Shown here: positions 45,578-55,261 of the stretch, piece by piece
How the letters are laid out: each line of letters begins with the position of its first letter
Position numbering within the stretch: position 1 is the stretch's first letter
DNA from: an uncultured Methanoregulaceae archaeon
Lineage (GTDB): Archaea > Halobacteriota > Methanomicrobia > Methanomicrobiales > Methanospirillaceae
DNA length: 64,000 bases
Direction of reading: 5' to 3'
Assembly: GCA_963701095.1 (NCBI GenBank)
Contig: OY969564.1
Coordinates: forward strand, 1,728,001 to 1,792,000
Position numbers and translations under genes: made by a program
Notes under the pieces: model-generated
Told to the model about the DNA's origin: nothing
The model's database searches: none
What the model saw: only the letters and a program-made list of their open reading frames with translations

Positions 45578-47176
45578 CTATCCCATCGGGGGAGCAGACG
45601 GGGCACCCTTGGACTGGGTGATCATCATGTCATCGACACGGATCAGCATAATGGCAGTTTCGGATGCACTTTGAATCGACTGGCGTTTTGAGCGGAGTGG
45701 TTCAAGCACACCCTCTTCGAACATATCGATGATTTCGCCATTGTAGACATTGAGCCCGGCATTCTTTTTCCCTTTTGCATGGGCGTTCTTGAGTGCTACC
45801 AGTTTGTCAATAGAATTGAACCCTGAATTCTCTGCAAGGGTGCGGGGGATGGTTTCATACGCTTTTGCGTATCCCTCGATTGCAAGCTGTACACGACCGC
45901 CGACAGATTCGGCGTAATCACGGATCTTCATTAAGAGCTCGGTCTCGACTGCACCGCCACCGACAACATAGGTGCCATCCTCAATAGCATCCATAACTAC
46001 ACGGGTACCATCAACGACTGCGCGCTCAAGTTCATCGAGAAGGTAATCGCTTGTGCCCCGGAGGAGGATAGTGATGGTCTTGGGATTCTTGCAACCGGAG
46101 ATCCTGGTTATGTCTGTATCGTTATCCTCTTCAACGACTTCAGCATGGCCGAGATCTTTCTTGGTCAGGTCCTCAGGTTTATTTACAATATTTGCATGCA
46201 GGGCCCGGGCGGCGTACTTGAGATCCTTTTCGGGGACATCTTCAACGGCATAGATACCGTTTTTGGCGAGGAAGAACTGGACCGAATCGGCAATGCCCTT
46301 CTGGCAGAATACCACGTTTGCGCCGGTGTCCACAATAGCGTCGGCAAGTTTCTTCAAGGTTGCATTCTCCTGTTCGGAAAATGCTGCAATCTGGTCTGCC
46401 GTGGTAATCTTTATTTTTGCCTTCACCTGGGTCTTTGTGATCTCCATTGGCATTGCAATGAGGGCTACTTTTGCCGAAGTTACCTTCTTTGGCATATCTT
46501 CGCTCACCCGTTTCTTGTCAAGGATAACGCCCCTTACAAGTTCGGCGTCGTCCATGGACCTGCCCTTCTGTTTCTTGATCATCACGTCGTCTTCATCGGC
46601 AAGGTATTTGCCGTTGACTTTCTCAGCGATGCCCATGACTGCATCGACAATAATACCGTCAAGTTTTCCCTTGACAGACTCGATTGACTTTCCGGTAATA
46701 GCGGTGTCAGCAATCTTCAACAGTGTCTTCCTGTCCTTGGGATCGACCTTGGAAGAAAGTGATTCTGTGATCTCGAGCGCTTTTAGCATGCCAAGCCGGT
46801 ATCCTTCTGCGATAACCGTCGGATGAATCCCCTGTTCAAGCAGGGATTCTGCCTGCTCCATCAGCGAACCGGCAATGACAACGGCCGTTGTGGTTCCGTC
46901 GCCGACCTCGTCATCCTGGGTATGTGCCACTTCAATGACCATCTTTGCACCGGGGTGCTGGACGGAGATTTCCTGTAATATTGTCGCCCCATCGTTGGTG
47001 ATGACGATGTCACCAGTGGAACCGACGAGCATTTTGTCCATGCCCCGCGGTCCAAGGGTAGTCCGGACCGCACCGGCAATCGCTTTTGCAGCCATGATAT
47101 TGGAGCGCTGCGCCTCCTTGCCGGTGTTCCGCTCCACATTTTCTCTTAAGATGATAATTGGTTGACCAGATAACAT
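45578..47176 (-). CDS. Thermosome (group II chaperonin) subunit
   Basis: [16 protein letters not shown] and GDGTTT. Confidence 0.96.
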
Positions 47177-47229
47177 AGGTGATCCTCTAATGCTGTAAAA
47201 GGTGGAATTGAACTTCTATATAAATCATA

Positions 47230-47237
47230 CTCTTGTT
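47230..47237. repeat. Left 8-bp target-site duplication CTCTTGTT
   Basis: Identical to 54627-54634 and abuts the left TIR. Confidence 0.9.
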
Positions 47238-47263
47238 GGTTCTGATAAGTTGGTGGGGGTTTG
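47238..47263 (+). repeat. Left terminal inverted repeat
   Basis: GGTTCTGATAAGTTGGTGGGGGTTTG. Confidence 0.9.
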
Positions 47264-47350
47264 GGTTTGCTCGCGGGTGGTGATAGGTAGCGAGTGGTAA
47301 CGCGCGAAATCTGCGTATGATTTAACTTCCCCAGAATTACACCACTCATT

Positions 47351-47554
47351 ATGCCAATGCTATCAGGAGGCCCACCTTACGAATCTCCCGAAATGAGAGA
47401 GATGGTAAAATCACTAATCCAGACCCTTAACGAGAGCAACAAAAAAGTAGAGCAATACAACAAAGCGATGCAGTACATGACTTTGACGTTAGTTGCTTTG
47501 ACAGTTGTATTGGTAATTTTAACAGTGGTTCAAGTGTTAAATCTCATTAAATAA
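47351..47554 (+). CDS. Small coiled-coil protein with C-terminal TM helix (transposon cargo)
   Basis: 67-aa ORF with amphipathic segment followed by LTLVALTVVLVILTVVQVL. Confidence 0.6.
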   Translation: MPMLSGGPPYESPEMREMVKSLIQTLNESNKKVEQYNKAMQYMTLTLVALTVVLVILTVVQVLNLIK

Positions 47555-47589
47555 GGTTCTGTTGCATCGCGGTTGATGAAGTGCGAAAA

Positions 47590-48996
47590 TTAGAGATTTT
47601 GTAAGTACATGTTTTTAGACTTCGAGAAATAGTGTTTTGCCGGATTTATTGTTCCCTCTAATATTGCTTTTCGTATGCGTCTAGCTTCTTCTATATGGAT
47701 CAATCGTAATGGTTTGGAGAATTTCGTCCGGTAGAGTACTTCGTCCATAAAATATTCCGGTCGTGGAATCGTAGGCAATCCATCCACGTGCGGGAATTCA
47801 TCCAATTCAGAAAGATGTTTTTTTACATAATCCACATCAGCATCGATACACAAATCGATTATTGGGACTCTCCCGAATCGATTGTTTGGTGAGATTGTTC
47901 CACCAGATCCTTGACTGTATTTCAGATTCCCGTTTAATAACGAACTAAATGCTTGGATGCCGTAATCGGCAAAATATAATCCATACCATGACGATCTCGG
48001 TAATACAACCGGTAACGATGGCGTCTTTTCGTGGCAGATGTTTACAATTTCCGAAATAAAGTTTCTAAGTTGAGTGGATCTATAGGACTCTATCACCTTT
48101 TCATAACCAACCAGTGTCAATGCGACTCCGGAATAATTATTGTATGTGTTGCCTTGGGTGATCCCGGCATTTAACAAAGAGAATACTGTATTTTGGTTAT
48201 TCTGATCGTCGTTATCAAAAATATTTAGATCGATGTACAGATGGAAATAAGGAAGTACCTGTTTGGAGTCCTTTTTCATGTCATTGCAAATTCTTGAAGT
48301 TGCTGCGTTGGATGAGAGTATTCTTCGTTTGATACTATCGGGAGTATCTTTTCTTAATTGCGGGACTGGAGGGATTATTGTGGTGTTCGGGGATTTTAAT
48401 GCCATATTTACATTGTTTGCAACGTACGCCGGATAAAAATCATTTATTCTTGGATCGAGCCACGCCCTGTATACATCACTATTGCGCGTTCCTATTGGGT
48501 CGACCGCTAGAGATTTACTGATGGTAAATAGTTGAGCTTCAACAAAAGGTTGGAAGAATGGGGGAATTAGGGTCATTGCCCCATTCACATCTTTATTCTT
48601 CAATTTTGCTTTAAAATTTTGTTTGTTATTAGGTTTCCCAGACAGTGCATATTCGAGTAACGTCTCCCCATAAACGCCTTTGAAAAATTCAGGCGGGTCA
48701 TAATATATTAAAGAATAATTTTGAATGAAGTCACGAATTGGCATATTACCATATAAGTTTAGTTGATATGACAATGGCTGAACCAGTTCTGACCATCGAT
48801 TTGCCGGGATTAATATTGGATTACCAGGAGGGATCGCCTGCATATTGTCTAACAGTACACTTAGATCTTCCGCTCCTTTAATTTCGGGGAGGTATGAAGG
48901 TGCCGGACAGAATGTATTACCAATTTTAAAACTGGTTGCGGTTTTTGAGGGGTTGTCGTAGCGTAAATGGGGGGTTTGAATTGCAATTTCAGCCAT
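47590..48996 (-). CDS. Hypothetical 468-aa protein, possibly a divergent TGT-like TIM barrel
   Basis: Long ORF overlapping the upstream wHTH gene; weak motif resemblance to the tRNA-guanine transglycosylase scaffold. Confidence 0.6.
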   Translation of the reverse strand: MAEIAIQTPHLRYDNPSKTATSFKIGNTFCPAPSYLPEIKGAEDLSVLLDNMQAIPPGNPILIPANRWSELVQPLSYQLNLYGNMPIRDFIQNYSLIYYDPPEFFKGVYGETLLEYALSGKPNNKQNFKAKLKNKDVNGAMTLIPPFFQPFVEAQLFTISKSLAVDPIGTRNSDVYRAWLDPRINDFYPAYVANNVNMALKSPNTTIIPPVPQLRKDTPDSIKRRILSSNAATSRICNDMKKDSKQVLPYFHLYIDLNIFDNDDQNNQNTVFSLLNAGITQGNTYNNYSGVALTLVGYEKVIESYRSTQLRNFISEIVNICHEKTPSLPVVLPRSSWYGLYFADYGIQAFSSLLNGNLKYSQGSGGTISPNNRFGRVPIIDLCIDADVDYVKKHLSELDEFPHVDGLPTIPRPEYFMDEVLYRTKFSKPLRLIHIEEARRIRKAILEGTINPAKHYFSKSKNMYLQNL

Positions 48997-49558
48997 ACTT
49001 CATCACCTCATAATTTTGTTTTAGTTCTTTCAATGCCTCGATAAAATAATCTAATTTTTCTACGGGTAACATTACAGCTCCTTCGGACACTTCACCCTCA
49101 AGGATAGAGTAACTTTTCTCTACAATATAGAAATACAATGCATCTCGTTGCCCTTGAGTGATTGTAATATCTAAAAATGGGTTCTCATCTCCCACTCGCA
49201 CCAATCCAATCTGATGAAGAGGTTTCCCGTTCGGGAAATAATGCACAATGTTCCCACTTCGTTTTTGAGAGTACACTTCCCGCAGACCATTTAATTTTTC
49301 AAGATGTTTTTGGATAGTTTTTCTATCAAGGCCTGAAACTTTTGCGATTTCTGATACGGTAATCCCATTTTGCCCAAATTTTTTAACTGTGTTTCTTATT
49401 GTATCTCTAGTGACCAACTCTCGTGCGTCCGGGCTCAAATATTTCCTTTGTTCATTGATTAATTTCAAATCACGTAGATCTGATTTATAGACATTGTCGC
49501 TCTCAAGATCGGATAGTTTAAAATGAACCAAATCATTTGTGACCGCATCTAGTGGCAT
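48989..49558 (-). CDS. Winged helix-turn-helix protein
   Basis: GITVSEIAKVSGLDRKTIQKHLEKL HTH followed by a wing. Confidence 0.75.
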   Translation of the reverse strand: MPLDAVTNDLVHFKLSDLESDNVYKSDLRDLKLINEQRKYLSPDARELVTRDTIRNTVKKFGQNGITVSEIAKVSGLDRKTIQKHLEKLNGLREVYSQKRSGNIVHYFPNGKPLHQIGLVRVGDENPFLDITITQGQRDALYFYIVEKSYSILEGEVSEGAVMLPVEKLDYFIEALKELKQNYEVMKYG

Positions 49559-49671
49559 GTCATGTACCTCATATGGTGTACATATTTACATATGTTATAT
49601 AAATAGTTATTTATGTTTTTTATGTTTTATGAGTTTTCGGAGTTTTTCAATTATCAGTTTGACGTAATCCC

Positions 49672-50259
49672 CTAGTCTCCACTCCACCGTATCAGATCGT
49701 TGACTAAATTTTCAATAGGTCTGATTTTTCCCCCAAGGTTTGTAGTGCCCTCAAATGCCCAAGTCTGCCTCAAATAAGTATTATCAATATACACGCCGTC
49801 GAGGTAAGTTTCAGCAAGGGATCTGTCTTTTGTTGGTTTAGTGTGGGAACCCCATTCCGATTTCCATACGGGTGATCCTTGTCTACCCTTGTCCGGTGTG
49901 GCAAATACCACTTTTAAATCTGGTATTTGCCCTTTGTAAACCATTGAATAAAATAGCGTTTCGCTGAATCTCCCGTGTAAACTCGTTTTACAGCTTATCA
50001 ACGCGATTGGTTGGTTGTTTTCAAGATTTTTCACTACCAGGTCAACATCCCCCCAAACACGATTGTAACCGCGAACCGGGAGCAAAAACATTCTTCCCAA
50101 ATGTGTATCGTTATTAATTTCAGTATTGTTTAATACGAGCATTCTTTGATTTTCTGCCCGCAATCTCTCATTTACGAGAGTTTGAACGTGTGATTGAAAG
50201 GCATATCCCTCAGTTGTAACATTACTTTGTCTTGATCGGACTGCTTCATGAGTGGGCAT
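49672..50259 (-). CDS. Type II restriction endonuclease-like PD-(D/E)xK nuclease (BsaWI-like)
   Basis: GDVDLVV...IALISCKTSLHGRFSE; directly downstream of a DNA methyltransferase gene. Confidence 0.7.
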   Translation of the reverse strand: MPTHEAVRSRQSNVTTEGYAFQSHVQTLVNERLRAENQRMLVLNNTEINNDTHLGRMFLLPVRGYNRVWGDVDLVVKNLENNQPIALISCKTSLHGRFSETLFYSMVYKGQIPDLKVVFATPDKGRQGSPVWKSEWGSHTKPTKDRSLAETYLDGVYIDNTYLRQTWAFEGTTNLGGKIRPIENLVNDLIRWSGD

Positions 50260-50317
50260 AATCTCAAACTGAATATTATAATGAGAGATAAAAATAGCTG
50301 CTGGCTTGATTGGCAGA

Positions 50318-51210
50318 TTATGCGGGTAACTCTTGTTTTTTGTTCTTTCGTGTTTTCGCAGGTTTTTCTTTTACATTTGCATAAGCATCAAGTTTGAATT
50401 GCCCAAGTTTCCCCTCTTTTTTCAACCGGTCCAGAGCGATTTTGCAGTACTGGGGATCAACATCAATCCCTATTCCTTTGCGATTGCAGAGGTTTGCCGC
50501 TACAAGTGTTGAACCGCTTCCTAAAAACGGATCGAGAACAACATCGTCTTTGTAACTAAACAACTGGATACACGGCGGGGGAGTTCTATTGGAAATGGTG
50601 CGGGATGGCCAATCCGTTTTTTACTCTCGCCGCTGAAAGTCCAAAGTCCGTTAGTCCAATCCATAAAATCCTGTTTTGATATATCGGACACTTTTGACCC
50701 GCTGGTTTTCTTCCATTCTTTTTTATAGAAAACGACAATTAATTCAACCGGGGCAATAACGTAAGGGGCCGAAGCACTCAGCCACGATCCCCATGCGGTC
50801 CGGCGCGATATATTTCCTTCGTTCCAGACGATTGTAGAATGATATTTGAAACCAACATTCTCTTTTGCTATTGTTGTTAAATCGGCTCCAACGCTTTGCT
50901 GGCCACCTTTGTTTTTATCAAGGGGGATGTTTAAGCAGAATCTCCCGTCGTCTTTAAGCCATTCGTAGCAACGGGACATCCATTTTCTACTGAATTCCTT
51001 ATAGTCCTCATAAGTTAATTGATCGTCATGGGAATTGTATTTTATATCGACGTTATACGGCGGTGAGGTTACTATGAGATCAACAGACCCCGGCTCAATC
51101 TGATCGGTATCAAAAACGCTATCGTTTATTATAAGAAAACTGTCGTTTTTAAAGAGGGTTTTCGGGCTCAAAGATTTCGCTTTTTTGGACTTGTTAGATG
51201 TATTTTTCAT
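50318..51210 (-). CDS. Beta-class N4-C/N6-A DNA methyltransferase, with a 1-nt frameshift near 50572
   Basis: LIVTSPPYN and HPAPFP in one frame, VLDPFLGSGST in the next; joins as ELPRR(C)IQLFSYKDD. Confidence 0.88.
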
Positions 51211-51220
51211 TGGGCCACCA

Positions 51221-51367
51221 TTATTGCAACGGCTCAATTAATACAACTTTCACTTTCTTCCCGACCCAATCAATCGGGACGTAAACCCTCCCCGAATTAC
51301 CAGACACTTTTACCACCTTCTCAACGATCTGATAACCTTCAATCTTGATCTCCATCTTGTCGCTCAT
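51221..51367 (-). CDS. DUF2080-like transposase-associated small protein (48 aa, not in the ORF track)
   Basis: Translated by hand as MSDKMEIKIEGYQIVEKVVKVSGNSGRVYVPIDWVGKKVKVVLIEPLQ; the GNSGRVYVP..WVGKKV signature is present; divergent from the transposase. Confidence 0.85.
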   Translation of the reverse strand: MSDKMEIKIEGYQIVEKVVKVSGNSGRVYVPIDWVGKKVKVVLIEPLQ

Positions 51368-51492
51368 GAAGTAGTTATATTGTAGTCTAAATGTATATAA
51401 TTTTCGCTAAAATTACAATCCTTAATGGCACTATAAGCGCATAGAAAGTATTAATACATTGTAGCTACATATTAGATATATAGTGAAATACA
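51368..51492. promoter_or_regulatory. Divergent promoter region for DUF2080 and the transposase
   Basis: BRE/TATA-like GAAAATTATATA (- strand, about 51394-51405) and GAAAGTATTAATA (+, 51444-51456), each followed by a related CATT...CTACA motif. Confidence 0.55.
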
Positions 51493-52680
51493 ATGGTACG
51501 CCAATTCACTGACCCAAGAGAATTAAGGGGACTGGCAATTCTCAGCCAGCCCGGTACGGTCATCCAGACCGGCAAGAATGTATGGGATGTTCGATCACAG
51601 AGCAAGGATGCCTATTACACCGTAGCCAGATTCTTCCCTGAGGACCGGAAGGCCAAGATCCTTTCTCAGGCAACCTGGACATGCACTTGCCCCGACTTTT
51701 TAACTCGCCATACGACGTGTAAACATCAGTACGCCGTCATGCTCTCGTTAAAACTTGCTGGTGATATAGAGGAGCACAGCACACCCGCACAGGTTGAGGA
51801 ATCTGAGCCAAATATTCTCTGCCCGGTCTGCAAGAGCGAGAATGTTATCAAGTGGGGAATCCGGAAAACAACATTCGGAGAGAACCAAAGGTTCCGCTGC
51901 CATGACTGCGGCCACAGATTTGTTATAGATAGGGGATTCTGCCGGATGAAGAACAGCCCGAAAACGATCACCCTCACCCTTGACCTCTACTTCAAAGGCG
52001 TATCACAGAGGAAAATTGCTGACCTCCTAAAACAGTTTGAGGATGTTAGCGTTTCCCAGCCCACAATCCTTGAATGGATTAAGAAATACTTGAAACTCCT
52101 TGCTAAGTATTCCGAGAAATACAAAGCCGACGTCGGTAACATTTGGCATTGTGATGAGACAACGGTGTTCATCAAGAAGGAGGGGGAAAAGAAGTATTAC
52201 CAGTGGATCTGGAACCTCATGGATGCCAAGACCCGCTACCTCCTTGCCTGCCAAGTCTCGGAAACCCGCTATGTCAAAGATGCACGCAAGCCGTTACAAA
52301 AGGCAAAAGAAGTGGCTCTAAATGTGCCGGACGCGATCGTAACCGATGGACTGCCAGCTTACCCTGAGGCAATCAAGGCAGAATATTATGGACTCGGAAG
52401 AATCCAGAACCCCCACATCCGGCTGAAAGATTTCGAGACAAAGCCAAACAACAATATCCTCGGAAGGCTTAACGGAACCTTCCGTGAGAGGACAAAGGTA
52501 GTGCGGTCATTCGATAGTGGAATTGGAGCTGAGGAGTTCGCTACTGGGATGCAAACCTATTACAATTATATCAGACCGCATCAGGGAATCGGTGGGCTTG
52601 TACCAGCTCAGCTTGCAAATATCCCAATTAATCTGACAGGGAACCGATGGGAAACGATGATCGGATTGGCAGTAAAATAA
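51493..52680 (+). CDS. IS6-family DDE transposase with N-terminal SWIM finger and zinc ribbon
   Basis: CTCPDF...CKH, CPVC...CHDC, HTH (VSQPTILEWI), WHCDET, IVTDG, NNILGRLN and YNYIRPH. Confidence 0.88.
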   Translation: MVRQFTDPRELRGLAILSQPGTVIQTGKNVWDVRSQSKDAYYTVARFFPEDRKAKILSQATWTCTCPDFLTRHTTCKHQYAVMLSLKLAGDIEEHSTPAQVEESEPNILCPVCKSENVIKWGIRKTTFGENQRFRCHDCGHRFVIDRGFCRMKNSPKTITLTLDLYFKGVSQRKIADLLKQFEDVSVSQPTILEWIKKYLKLLAKYSEKYKADVGNIWHCDETTVFIKKEGEKKYYQWIWNLMDAKTRYLLACQVSETRYVKDARKPLQKAKEVALNVPDAIVTDGLPAYPEAIKAEYYGLGRIQNPHIRLKDFETKPNNNILGRLNGTFRERTKVVRSFDSGIGAEEFATGMQTYYNYIRPHQGIGGLVPAQLANIPINLTGNRWETMIGLAVK

Positions 52681-52688
52681 TTTTTAGT

Positions 52689-53213
52689 TTAATTTGTTTT
52701 TGGAATTGGGATAATGCCTGCTCTTTTCAGAACACTTTCAACTCTGTCAGAATAATTAGGTTTTAAAGCAGTGACTATTGCTACTAATTGCTTATCATTT
52801 GATCCCACGTCTGTGTTGTCTAAAACAAAATATGCTGTGGCAATAAGAGATAATTCTACGGCATTGAATTTTCCAAATTTTGTAACAATACGATCAATTG
52901 CATCGGTTGTTGATTTTGTAAGTTCAACGCCACTTAACAATTCAGTAGAATCGATTTTGATGTCATACCCCTTGTCTTCAATCCAGTCAATTTTTAATAA
53001 TTTAGATTCTCCGGCAAAAGTAACGTCTTGCGAGACTTGATTGGAATACGGCCCATAATGGTACATTTTGTAAGTATAATCTGTAATTCCCTCTCGATTC
53101 AAAAGGAATATTATTTTTTGTATTGCCGTCGTACCAACTTGATGTTTTGTGGAAGTCAGTAATTTTTGGGTAGTATACGTTATAATTTTCAATCTATCTT
53201 TAAGTTCCGTCAT
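52689..53213 (-). CDS. YwgA/Panacea(SocA)-like protein
   Basis: GTTAIQKIIFLL, YHYGPYS and LSLIAT; ATGA overlap with the HD gene. Confidence 0.7.
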   Translation of the reverse strand: MTELKDRLKIITYTTQKLLTSTKHQVGTTAIQKIIFLLNREGITDYTYKMYHYGPYSNQVSQDVTFAGESKLLKIDWIEDKGYDIKIDSTELLSGVELTKSTTDAIDRIVTKFGKFNAVELSLIATAYFVLDNTDVGSNDKQLVAIVTALKPNYSDRVESVLKRAGIIPIPKTN

Positions 53214-54462
53214 AATCCTAACCTCGCAATTATTTTTTTTGCTTTTTCATAATCCTCAGATTTAACATAAACTCTGGTAAATTTTGTGTTCCCTAATAAA
53301 GACATAATGCGTGAGTAGTGTGAAAGTGGATGGGCATGCCCATCTTTATCAATTATCATGATTCCAGCACTAGGATCAAGATCGTACCATGTTTTTCCCG
53401 GGTCGTCTTTGATGCATTCTATACCTTTACTTCCAAATGATTTAGAAATTTGATCTAGATTTGCTTCATGGTTTTCAGATAGGTTTTCAATTTTATAAAT
53501 GCATTTTAGATGATTTCTTGAACAAATTGATTTACACCAATAATTATTACTCGTAAGAATATTCACCCACACAGAATAATCATCATATTTTACAAATTCA
53601 TTAATTTCAGATGGAGGGGGGTATTCGTTGATGATAGATTTTAGTGCCCGATGAAGCATAATGTCATAAGACCTCCGCACATCGTGAAAAATGACTTGCG
53701 AATATATCTGATAACGCGCAAGTATCATTGCCTCTGCATTTTGCCATCCGTCTTCATTTATCCCAATAACGGGATCATCGGTTTCTGGGTGTGTTCCGAT
53801 TGAAATAGTTCCAAGAATCCTCGCTAAATCATATATTCCATATTTAACACCAATATGGTAAGAATCTCGTAAAAGATAATCGGCTCTATCTGCATCCAAT
53901 TGACTTGAAATTATTGATCCCCAGAATAGTTTCGATGCCCCCGCAGTTGGATCTCTTTCTAGCACTTGCGCAATCTCATCAGAAGAAATACGAAGATTTG
54001 CTTTATTATGGGGGTTTCCTTCTATCTTCTCTTTAGTGGGCCTTTAATCAAAGCAACAGTATAATCTTCATGAGTATAACGTTTATTTCCAGATTTAATT
54101 GGAAAAAGATCCTCCCCGGAGTGCGAAAATGGGCTATGGCCTATATCGTGAAGCAATGCAGCTAATCTAATTACAAATAGCTCTCGCTCCAATCCGATAT
54201 CTTCATACTGGAATTTATCTCTCAAAATATTGTTGTTTTCTTCGTAAGATCGAATAGTGTTAAACATCGCGTCTGCGACGTGCATTACCCCCAAAGAATG
54301 TTCAAAACGCGTGTGGGTTGCTGCCGGATAGACCATCTCAGTTAATGCGAGTTGTTTGATTCGTCTTAGCCGTTGAAAAATTGGATGAGATATAATGGAT
54401 TTTTCGAAATCGGTGAACTCTATGAATCCGTGAATTGGATCGCGAACTTCATTCCAATCCAA
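53210..54462 (-). CDS. HD-domain phosphohydrolase (YwfO/SAMHD1-like dNTPase family), with a 1-nt frameshift near 54033
   Basis: RDPIHG, FQRLRRIKQL, HTRFEHSLG, LLHDIGHSPFSH, then LDADRADYLLRD and YSQVIFH. One extra A joins the frames as PLKEKIEGNPHN. TTG start follows GAGGCG. Confidence 0.85.
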
Positions 54463-54600
54463 TAGAACGCCTCTTTTTTGAATATATTTCCTGAAAGAAT
54501 ATATTTTTCTATATTGGTTTTGAAAATGTGTCAAATTTATCGGTTCATGGAAGTATGCTTGCGCGACCACCCGTGAGTTATCACTGGGGGTCAAATTTAT

Positions 54601-54626
54601 CGAACCCCCGCCAACCTATCAGAACC
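54601..54626 (-). repeat. Right terminal inverted repeat
   Basis: Reverse complement reads GGTTCTGATAGGTTGGCGGGGGTTCG. Confidence 0.9.
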
Positions 54627-54634
54627 CTCTTGTT
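54627..54634. repeat. Right 8-bp target-site duplication CTCTTGTT
   Basis: Identical to 47230-47237. Confidence 0.9.
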
Positions 54635-54655: not shown

Positions 54656-55261
54656 TCAGTCAATACGGGATATTTTGAAGAGCGAATAGACCGGTACGCC
54701 ATCAATGTCCCGGATACCGCGCTTATCGAAAATAACCCATATTGCTACCGGGACTGCACCATGTTTCTTAAGGTATTTGACAACCTCACGCATCGTGTTC
54801 CCTGACGTGATAACATCATCGACAATAATGCACCGTTCCTTGGCCACAGGTGCAAAGTTCCCGCTGATTGACCCGACGGGATGGTCGCTGGCGTTCTGTT
54901 TTGAGGGATGATAGATAGCCAGCTGGGATGCTTCCTGGACTGATATAACCGTCGCTAACGGGATGCCGGAAAGAGCAATTCCCACGATAACATCTGCGGA
55001 TGCGGAAGCTGGGTCTTTCTGCGAACCATAATACCGGTTCATCAGCATTAAGGCGATCCCGTCAAGCAAAGGAGCCTGGCTGCTTACTGCCGTCCAGTCG
55101 ATGTGGACATCCTTTGGCGCTGCTGCACCACCATTTGCCTGGGTCAAAAGCCAGGTCACTGTTTCCATGGAGAGGGAAAGTTCGTCTGCAATCTGGCCGG
55201 GGCTGTGACCTTCTGATAAAAGAAGTTTAGCTCTGGCGATCAGATCGTCAAGGGAAGACAT
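54656..55261 (-). CDS. PyrE-like phosphoribosyltransferase-domain protein with N-terminal HTH (GfcR-like)
   Basis: [22 protein letters not shown] and IVDDVITSG. Confidence 0.85.

Follow-up and report, generated by a model that had tools for sequence, protein, structure and literature searches.

Tn7 is a cargo-laden transposon that inserts at attTn7, at a fixed distance from a conserved essential gene and without damage to it, where it can stack in tandem, and its cargo is rich in defence genes. Ty3 inserts at the start sites of Pol III. In Drosophila, P elements are found in heat-shock promoters (PMC1592238). The insertion sequences (IS) of the IS6 family, which includes IS26, are of another kind. 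In the parts of PMC7986276 covered here, IS6 members are 0.7-0.9 kb long, a few reaching 1.2-1.8 kb, the archaeal members are small, the ends start with GG and contain a cTGTt motif, the target duplication is 8 bp and movement is replicative with cointegrate formation; ISDsp3 is the one IS6 member in ISfinder with a passenger gene. The subject of this report is a 7,389-bp element (positions 47238-54626) in a stretch of 64,000 nucleotides, here called the window, from an uncultured Methanoregulaceae archaeon (contig OY969564.1, positions 1,728,001 to 1,792,000; assembly GCA_963701095.1). Comparison with related loci makes it quite likely that this is a unit transposon with site-specific insertion, from an archaeal family so far undescribed. 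The main new result, as read from these loci, is that at most sites one edge of the target duplication lies exactly 5 nt upstream of a TATA box.

The element is predicted to be a DDE unit transposon related to IS6. With the zinc-finger clade h of IS6/IS26 (ISCpe7, Clostridium) it shares a DDE core, a zinc ribbon and IS6 as the best NCBIfam family, GG-starting ends with a CTGTT motif and an 8-bp duplication, and its relatives keep the DDE motif with an arginine at +7. The end of ISCpe7 reads TCTGTTAAGTT and the family end consensus reads GGTTCTGTTAAGTT. However, ISCpe7 is a compact IS of about 1.27 kb, whereas the window element holds about ten other genes in its 7,389 bp. The family also has an extra N-terminal SWIM module, promoter-specific insertion and a score below the IS6 cut-off, and it has one transposase copy per element instead of directly repeated IS copies, which are not seen.

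Other described systems resemble the element in different ways. Tn7-like transposons likewise have one transposition module, cargo, a harmless site at a fixed distance, tandem stacking and defence cargo. The family described here uses a single IS6-like DDE protein, however, and makes an 8-bp rather than a 5-bp duplication, and its address is the upstream edge of a promoter while that of Tn7 is the 3' end of a gene. No TnsA, TnsB, TnsC, TnsD or TniQ was found in a Pfam scan of all open reading frames (ORFs) of the window element, TnsD scoring only 17.7 bits (cut-off 32.4) on the helix-turn-helix (HTH) cargo protein. As with Ty3 and P elements, promoter architecture appears to position the insertion and heat-shock promoters are preferred, but those systems are eukaryotic, use a retrotransposon or a P-type transposase and are tethered by TFIIIB or open chromatin. 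Unit transposons of the tIS and Tn3 types also enclose a transposase and passenger genes in inverted repeats and one duplication. Their transposases belong to another family, and the family described here differs in having no resolvase, a central transposase with cargo on both arms, and site specificity.

In the sections covered, a thaumarchaeal mobile-element survey describes IS-like transposons of one or two genes, and a term search of a 2026 census of archaeal IS gave no 'passenger' or 'unit transposon' and two uses of 'cargo', one of them in a cited title. Across the parts of the literature that were searched (including PMC7986276, PMC6563490, PMC13343696 and PMC5797428; ISfinder, TnCentral and supplementary tables lay outside this coverage) the family is undescribed, and neither a cargo-bearing IS6-like archaeal transposon nor TATA-proximal targeting is reported. 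An earlier sequence-only reading of the window, made without database searches, had likewise known of no description of this architecture. No archaeal or bacterial DDE element with promoter targeting turned up in the same literature; within it, and to our knowledge, the target choice is without prokaryotic precedent.

Boundaries of the element and the empty site

The window element is a real, bounded transposon of 7.4 kb. Its terminal inverted repeats are identical at 22 of 24 positions (47238-47261 and 54603-54626), or at 23 of 26 when read by eye (47238-47263 and 54601-54626), and they start with GG; the repeat sequence, GGTTCTGATA, contains the cTGTt motif. A perfect 8-bp target-site duplication, CTCTTGTT, abuts both ends, at 47230-47237 on the left and at 54627-54634 on the right, and has no strand. 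Beyond the repeats the ends are conserved as well. The left end (47238-47305, plus strand) shares 82-87% identity over 61-68 nt with the left ends of two elements from locus L048, and the right end (54558-54626, minus strand) shares 82-83% over 61-69 nt with right ends from L048 and L049. Here and below, L marks fetched loci, G the genomes of relatives (G000 is the window genome) and X public sequencing runs.

The repeats are rare outside the element. A degenerate 24-mer made from both arms occurs twice in the window and never in 100 dinucleotide shuffles, and in the 2,625,686-bp genome it finds the two window arms and one solo copy with 2 mismatches. No additional repeat copy turned up inside the window element when up to 3 mismatches were allowed. 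When the whole genome was scanned for GG...CC inverted repeats with 14 or more of 20 positions matching and a perfect 8-bp duplication, the scan returned the window pair and two pairs that lack the GGTTCTG start of the family. No other bounded family copy with a perfect duplication was found in the window genome, where the other repeat-like matches are solo or decayed.

The element separates the promoter of a thermosome (Cpn60/TCP-1) gene (45578-47176, minus strand; Pfam PF00118, E 1.8e-168) from the 3' end of an orotate-phosphoribosyltransferase-like (GfcR-like, pyrE-like) gene (54656-55261, minus strand; NCBIfam NF002620, 251.5 bits), which forms the other flank. Forty relatives were searched with the pyrE-like protein for the empty site, and the two genes adjoin each other in 20 relatives of the same genus. 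In G003, G012, G015 and G004 the intergenic length equals that of the window minus the element and minus one 8-mer. These relatives keep the TATA box, the spacer next to it and one 8-mer, which reads CCCTTGCG, CCCTTTCG or CCCTTGTG; these sequences therefore belong to the host and not to the element. No repeat is present at the empty site of the congeners G003, G012 and G004. The site in G015 has a 10-nt repeat-like start, and in G020, the closest complete relative, a 105-bp remnant there opens with the family repeat (position weight matrix, PWM, score 21.6). The repeats with their flanking 8-mer, the plausible intergenic region left on removal of the element and the unit rather than composite structure had all been proposed in the sequence-only reading. 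The repeats were re-read with the same coordinates and counts, the relatives supply the intergenic region, and a unit element agrees with the lone transposase, the lack of internal repeats and the single 8-bp duplication that encloses the 7.4 kb.

Public sequencing runs add to this picture. A contig of X5, at a depth of 2 and thus weak, joins 47229 precisely to 54627, skipping 7,397 nt, and 8 letters fit both sides of the joint. In a contig of X1, from a related strain, 47222 is joined to 54646 with 27 other letters. A contig of X4 agrees with the window through the flank and the initial 7 nt of the repeat, after which it diverges into another end (TTGCGTCTTAGG...), so another element occupies the same site there. 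In X3 and X4 the summed contig depth over the flanks is two to three times the depth over the element, which fits a presence/absence polymorphism, these contig depths being mixtures of organisms.

A fixed distance to the TATA box

On its minus strand the window has the order element, AACAAGAG, TATGA, TTTATATA and, 40 nt later, the thermosome start codon. The octamer TTTATATA (47217-47224, minus strand) is the thermosome TATA box, and the 5-nt spacer TATGA (47225-47229, minus strand) between it and the duplication occupies the position of the TFB recognition element (BRE). Loci of homologous transposases were fetched with an alignment of 17 homologues, first for a discovery set (76 loci from species-representative genomes, plus the window) and later for a hold-out set (78 metagenome loci). 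Elements were sought as 20-nt inverted ends with at least 15 of 20 positions matching, the same first two letters and an identical flanking 8-mer. Bounded sites were found in 38 of the 77 discovery sources and in 36 of the 78 hold-out loci.

In the discovery set, an octamer with at most 2 mismatches to TTTATATA stands at an offset of exactly 5 on one side of 25 of the 38 sites (18 of 38 with at most 1 mismatch), against a background per position in the same loci of 0.81% and 0.079%, respectively. This pattern was noticed post hoc, so the test was fixed and then applied unchanged to the hold-out set, in which 27 of 36 sites have such an octamer at offset 5 (22 of 36 with at most 1 mismatch). 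In the pooled sets the TATA octamer lies at exactly offset 5 in 52 of 74 sites, and offsets 4 and 6 have none within 2 mismatches. A looser rule, that at least 7 of the 8 letters at offset 5 are A or T, is satisfied at 30 of 38 and 32 of 36 sites versus 9.2% in the background. The spacer, at the BRE position, has the form nAAnn, the two A residues being present in 21/25 and 20/25 discovery sites.

Promoters that are hit and repeated use of one position

An ORF begins no more than 330 nt away on the TATA side in 51 of the 74 cases, and these ORFs were named by Pfam. Chaperone genes make up 28 of them: 22 Cpn60_TCP1, 4 HSP20, 1 ClpB and 1 GrpE. A 23rd thermosome gene (L045) is broken and was detected by clustering only. 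Four others encode ArsR-type HTH proteins of about 210 aa and one each encodes TBP, TFIIB and SUI1; the remainder consist of 9 named ORFs in eight families and 8 without a match. The thermosome sites lie at two paralogous promoters of the Methanoregula type and at those of two contigs from Thermoplasmatales, in which the identity of the transposases to that of the window is only about 34%.

The window genome itself has four transposase matches. Three are DDE-homologous, and the fourth consists only of the SWIM module of an unrelated transposase. All three DDE-homologous places abut heat-shock promoters, those of thermosome A, thermosome B and the grpE operon, with the geometry end|8|5|TTTATATA. 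At thermosome B a decayed fragment gives ..CCAGAACC|AACACAGG|TAAAT|TTTATATA, and at the grpE operon a decayed element gives ..CAGAACC|TACCACAC|AACAT|TTTATATA. Since the genome contains 109 exact copies of TTTATATA, the TATA sequence alone does not explain the choice of promoter. The target specificity had been missed in the sequence-only reading.

The promoters have further features of their own. In the promoters of hsp20, clpB/grpE-operon and ArsR-type regulator genes (L054, L056, L060, L062, L070, L151, L168, L173, L175, L178, L184, and G000:C1 at about 896690 and about 2477970), the TATA box is followed about 10-15 nt downstream by ACTAAC and, after a gap of 4-6 nt, by GTAAA or GGTTAA. For Methanoregula-type genomes this shared motif is a candidate heat-shock operator. 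What thermosome promoters have in common is instead TATAGAA and a palindrome, TTTTAG..CTAAAA. Downstream of the grpE-operon TATA box, a small ORF (MTETNGVKLTIKK..GRRMATLPWQV..) precedes grpE at about 896720-896836 of G000:C1, and a similar one precedes clpB in L070; it is a predicted, unannotated leader gene of the chaperone operon.

A single position can be used repeatedly. The thermosome-A promoter is occupied by six elements (those of the window, L046, L128, L129, L140 and L146), which share only the transposase gene (72-87% nucleotide identity) and 50-76-bp ends. L128, L140 and L146, which are different elements from one metagenome, carry ATAGACAG as a common duplication at this promoter. 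In L046 and L129 the same ends stand in opposite orientation. Elements also form arrays. Among facing end pairs found with a weight matrix (n=21), 14 are exactly 8 bp apart, 3 are at 9 bp and 1 is at 7 bp. Simple elements abut another end across exactly their own 8-mer in 16 of 41 cases in the discovery set and 14 of 37 in the hold-out set, against 7 of 2,862 at other offsets. The junction 8-mers are identical within each array, as with ATTTTAGC, present three times in L048, and array neighbours stand in all relative orientations. A promoter-defined site that is regenerated by the duplication would explain the arrays by itself.

The transposase

The transposase is a 395-aa protein encoded at 51493-52680 (plus strand), 4,255 nt from the left end of the element and 1,946 nt from the right end. 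Pfam, NCBIfam and alignment place a SWIM zinc finger at residues 59-86, a zinc ribbon of the IS1/IS1595 type at 107-144, an HTH and an IS6-type DDE core at about 215-360. The Pfam model DDE_Tnp_IS240 (PF13610) covers residues 218-358 with 44.7 bits (cut-off 27). The sequence-only reading had assigned the element to the IS6 family, and this stands only in part: IS6 (NF033587) is the best NCBIfam model and the DDE core is of this kind, but the score of 112.6 bits remains below the cut-off of 125 bits; IS1 follows with 78.8 bits. The protein is 32% identical to the ISCpe7 transposase over 234 aa comprising the HTH and DDE regions, and the zinc ribbon aligns too. Residues 1-92 have no counterpart in ISCpe7. 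Matches on plasmids number 188 records, all below 60% identity. Of the 25 that are listed, most are annotated as IS6 family transposases, the clostridial ISCpe7 type first, the exceptions being a generic DDE protein and five records that lack an annotated feature.

The window copy retains D221 and D285, and at position 324 a glycine (codon 52462-52464, GGA) replaces the catalytic glutamate, a change that had escaped the sequence-only reading. A glutamate stands at this position, within NNNILERLNGTFR, in 16 of 16 homologues in alignment A1 and in each of the 28 other locus transposases that matched the motif pattern, with arginine at +7. Contigs of X1 and X3 across the gene have no alternative letters at the glycine codon. 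With this change, and with no second full-length transposase copy in the window genome, the window element is probably immobile. It would then be fixed in place, with its cargo genes intact.

The window genome also encodes an unrelated transposase, of the DDE_Tnp_1 family, that starts with a SWIM module of the same kind (38% identity over about 90 aa). Its gene is single-copy and codes for a protein of 413 aa (G000:C1:120476-121714; L007:1477-2718), and IS ends were looked for around it in L007 and not found. The SWIM module seems to have been exchanged between transposase families.

The family and its variable cargo

The transposase has 382 homologues at E <= 1e-10, of about 395 aa; those listed range from 313 to 409 aa and carry generic names only, such as 'transposase-like protein' or 'DDE-type integrase/transposase/recombinase [Methanoregula sp.]'. 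The discovery set gave 41 simple elements of 2,614-10,983 bp (median 4,453 bp), and the hold-out set gave 37 of 1,233-11,015 bp (median 4,513 bp). For the three smallest hold-out elements (1,233, 2,341 and 2,374 bp) the match to the transposase is either outside the element or limited to residues 113-395. Elements that hold a full-length match are 2.6-11 kb long, with 1.4-9.8 kb beyond the transposase gene. These counts leave out three pairs with unrelated repeats (L102, 2370; L117, 3725 and 3533), a 91-bp mini-element in L076, a nested shifted pair in L173 and 'union' rows containing another listed element. The conserved ends measure about 60-70 bp and start with GGTTCTG. The family consensus starts with GG and contains CTGTT, and a consensus drawn from 86 ends reads GGTTCTGTTAAGTTGACGGG.

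The search through archaeal genomes that the sequence-only reading had proposed thus yielded many elements with inverted repeats and 8-bp duplications. The same reading held that repeats tightly flanking the transposase alone would speak against it; no such compact IS was found around a full-length transposase among the 78 simple elements, the smallest with a full-length transposase being 2,614 bp. It had also pictured an element moving between methanogens, and this is too narrow, as the hosts include methanogens (Methanoregula and relatives) and also Bathyarchaeia, Nitrososphaerota, Thermoplasmatota and others. A core of transposase plus DUF2080 had been suggested as well. A small ORF does lie directly upstream of the transposase in most elements, usually divergent, and in the window it is a DUF2080 gene (33 bits). 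By Pfam, however, it is DUF2080 in 3 (window, L061 and L062) and of the MazE/AbrB type in 8, with the others left unassigned, and an iterative profile seeded with the window DUF2080 finds this protein upstream of 4 of 40 transposases, so that DUF2080 is a recurrent and not a universal part of the core.

The remaining gene content is variable. When the ORFs of discovery elements were clustered, only the transposase formed a universal family; a few small families recur, and many ORFs are singletons. Of 205 non-transposase ORFs, 55 have a Pfam match at E <= 1e-4. Among these are N4/N6 methyltransferases (10 ORFs in 9 elements, plus that of the window), nucleases of the Bpu10I, MvaI/BcnI, HNH and BsaWI types, type I M and S subunits, an Eco57I/MmeI-type enzyme, and GmrSD with a HEPN protein. 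Also present are HD/dGTPase-like proteins, a nucleoside deoxyribosyltransferase, Panacea-domain proteins (3 elements plus the window), Fic, ParB_N, a BrxC/D-like ATPase, radical SAM, NUDIX and thymidylate kinase, together with the non-defence genes TrkH, beta-helix and PQQ/PKD. That defence modules are interchangeable, as had been proposed, is supported by the six thermosome-promoter elements that share only transposase gene and ends, but the cargo is not all defence-like. Cargo cluster 3 forms a repeat-bounded cassette of its own beside a transposase-bearing element in L063 and lies inside the element in L052, L054 and L070.

Contigs of L121, L129, L142, L146, L151, L168, L184, L197 and other hold-out loci stop about 100 bp outside the element ends. 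This fits the behaviour of assemblers at strain-variable flanks and would point to polymorphism being frequent, whether of presence/absence or multi-site. Pairs of facing family-type repeats form mini-elements of 77-80 bp in G000:C1 at 404973-405051, 2236781-2236859, 783580-783658, 183094-183173 and 373193-373269, and a similar one lies in L054:6760-6838; several are of the GGTTCTGTCAAGTCTTCGG subtype. No matching 8-bp duplication was found at the four pairs whose flanks were inspected (all but 183094-183173), and the mini-elements may be decayed miniature inverted-repeat transposable elements (MITEs) or something else. At G000:C1:2277134-2277990 lies an 857-bp element whose inverted ends match at 16 of 20 positions (GGGTATAGTCCC...) and whose 8-bp duplication is TAAAAAAA; it probably represents a further small IS or MITE that is unrelated in type.

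Gene content of the window element

The cargo of the window element lies on both sides of the transposase. On the left, an operon on the minus strand is headed by the 48-aa DUF2080 protein (51221-51367; Pfam PF09853, E 5.2e-8, 33 bits, cut-off 21.5), whose gene is transcribed divergently from the transposase. It continues with an N4/N6 type II DNA methyltransferase (50318-51237; Pfam PF01555 on both of its pieces, PADLOC MTase_II 228 bits), a BsaWI-like type II restriction endonuclease (49672-50259; Pfam PF18643, E 7.5e-11), a 189-aa winged-helix/HTH protein (48989-49558) and a 468-aa protein (47590-48996). The HTH protein has only a sub-threshold match (HTH_29, 25.5 bits, cut-off 28.1), belongs to cluster 6, present in 3 elements, and is paired with the 468-aa gene. 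The 468-aa protein has no match in Pfam, NCBIfam or PADLOC, and the protein atlas gave only unnamed clusters; it is shared with elements in L058 and L069. The gene pair is 78% identical to L069 at the nucleotide level, and this module (L069, L058) and the ends of about 60-70 bp are the only DNA-level likeness of the window element to others. A 67-aa ORF at 47351-47554 (plus strand) is without support as a gene, having no relative in other elements and only sub-threshold Pfam and NCBIfam matches.

On the right, two genes on the minus strand converge on the transposase. One encodes a 174-aa Panacea (SocA-like) protein, an antitoxin-type gene (52689-53213; Pfam PF13274, 27 bits, cut-off 25.7; PADLOC DarG/PDC-M19A matches), and the other a dGTPase-like phosphohydrolase with HD and HD_assoc_2 domains (53210-54594; Pfam, NCBIfam and PADLOC). 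No integrase or Cas1 was seen among the ORFs of the element in the Pfam scan. The methyltransferase and HD genes each appear split by a frameshift in the window. Contigs of X1, a possible source, and of X3 and X4 have an extra C after 50572 and after 54032 at full depth, which by eye joins the split ORFs, so the frameshifts are assembly errors and both genes are intact. The window genome has a marker completeness of 86% though it is a single contig, and other apparent pseudogenes in it may be indel errors.

Mechanism and alternative explanations

It is proposed that the core of the family consists of an IS6-related DDE transposase with two extra N-terminal zinc modules (SWIM and an IS1-type ribbon), accompanied by a small divergent gene of DNA-binding type, DUF2080 in the window, and that the DNA between core and ends is exchangeable cargo. 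The comparison shows integration by an 8-bp staggered cut with its gene-proximal edge exactly 5 nt upstream of a TATA box, preferably at the promoters of the two thermosome paralogues, Hsp20, ClpB/GrpE and the ArsR-type regulator. Since the duplication leaves BRE and TATA box intact, neither a gene nor a core promoter is disrupted. The same 8 bp is restored beside the TATA box, so that later elements insert at the identical position and form head-to-tail arrays. The chemistry is presumably carried out by the IS6-like DDE protein, while the extra N-terminal zinc module, the small AbrB-type partner or both may read the site. Arrays and the loss of inner ends are a likely route for the gain and swap of cargo and for its position on both arms.

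How might the site be read? It may be read directly from the BRE-TATA DNA, which is given somewhat less than an even chance. A more tentative suggestion is that TBP/TFB held on poised heat-shock promoters are recognized. The heat-shock repressor Phr of Pyrococcus reportedly blocks the recruitment of polymerase and not the binding of TBP/TFB, which is the basis of this idea. In its fuller and equally speculative form, the archaeal transcription machinery would steer the family, the transposase docking through its SWIM/zinc module or its DUF2080/AbrB-type partner on promoter-held TBP/TFB and integrating one helical turn upstream.

Several observations weigh against a promoter-directed transposon family. 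The evidence for transposition is wholly comparative; the window transposase, without its catalytic glutamate, cannot serve to show activity, and it misses the NCBIfam cut-off for IS6. By the search criteria used, no bounded element was found in 39 of 77 discovery and 42 of 78 hold-out sources, many of which are short contigs. Among the bounded sites, 13 of 38 and 9 of 36 are without a TATA-like octamer (at most 2 mismatches) at offset 5, and a few flanks are G+C-rich (L080, L118, L187, L194). At least two hold-out sites duplicate discovery sites (L148 is L069 and L152 is L054), and many thermosome-promoter sites are orthologous across related genomes, so there are fewer independent insertions than sites. 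The preference for heat-shock genes is strongest in the Methanoregula-type clade, more distant members being found at TBP, TFB, SUI1 and metabolic promoters.

The abutment of 30 of the 78 simple elements on another end at exactly 8 bp could also mean that the address is the end of a resident element and not the promoter, new copies being drawn to an existing inverted repeat, much as IS26 inserts beside IS26, with the TATA association secondary. The repeat-like remnant in G020 and the 10-nt repeat-like start in G015 would suit such a history at the window site. This explanation is nevertheless unlikely. Elements that have no neighbour (those of the window, L046, L128, L140 and L146) still keep the 5-nt distance to the TATA box, the box has the fixed offset from the outermost duplication of an array, the empty sites of G003, G012 and G004 lack any repeat, and re-use of a promoter-defined site accounts for the arrays alone. 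A still less probable explanation is that insertion is near-random or AT-biased and that selection retains only copies whose position upstream of a promoter does no harm. Gene-breaking insertions would indeed be purged, and AT-rich intergenic DNA is a common transposon target. Yet the register of a single nucleotide, with offset 5 at 52 of 74 sites and the adjoining offsets empty, is beyond the reach of selection, different elements carry an identical 8-mer, and all three family sites in the window genome are at heat-shock promoters, among 109 exact TATA octamers.

Finally, the element could be a decayed composite transposon, or a genomic island moved by another recombinase, with the repeats as what remains of two IS copies. 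According to the parts of PMC7986276 covered, the classical vehicle for cargo in the IS6 family is the pseudo-compound transposon, which has an IS at each end. The window genome, however, has one transposase gene with neither a second full-length copy nor an internal repeat, a single 8-bp duplication encloses the whole element, the same architecture with a central transposase recurs at 74 sites, and neither integrase nor Cas1 is seen among the ORFs of the window element. Hardly any weight is therefore given to this origin. A unit transposon directed to a promoter remains the preferred reading.

Concluding remarks

The comparison points to a widespread archaeal transposon family, with hundreds of homologues in Methanoregula, its relatives and several other phyla, that curated IS models miss and genome annotation records as a generic DDE protein. 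Such elements illustrate one way for archaea to package and move genes of the restriction-modification, toxin-antitoxin-type and nucleotide-depleting kinds. For methanogens, a transposase able to deliver kilobases of cargo to a predictable and harmless site would also be a useful genetic tool. The nucleotide-precise target beside BRE and TATA box makes it testable whether prokaryotic transposases can read promoter architecture or transcription factors. Should the tentative idea of steering by TBP/TFB hold, it would be the first prokaryotic counterpart of promoter tethering of the Ty3 or P-element type, and chaperonin promoters would be universal safe-harbour sites at which archaea stack and exchange defence cassettes.

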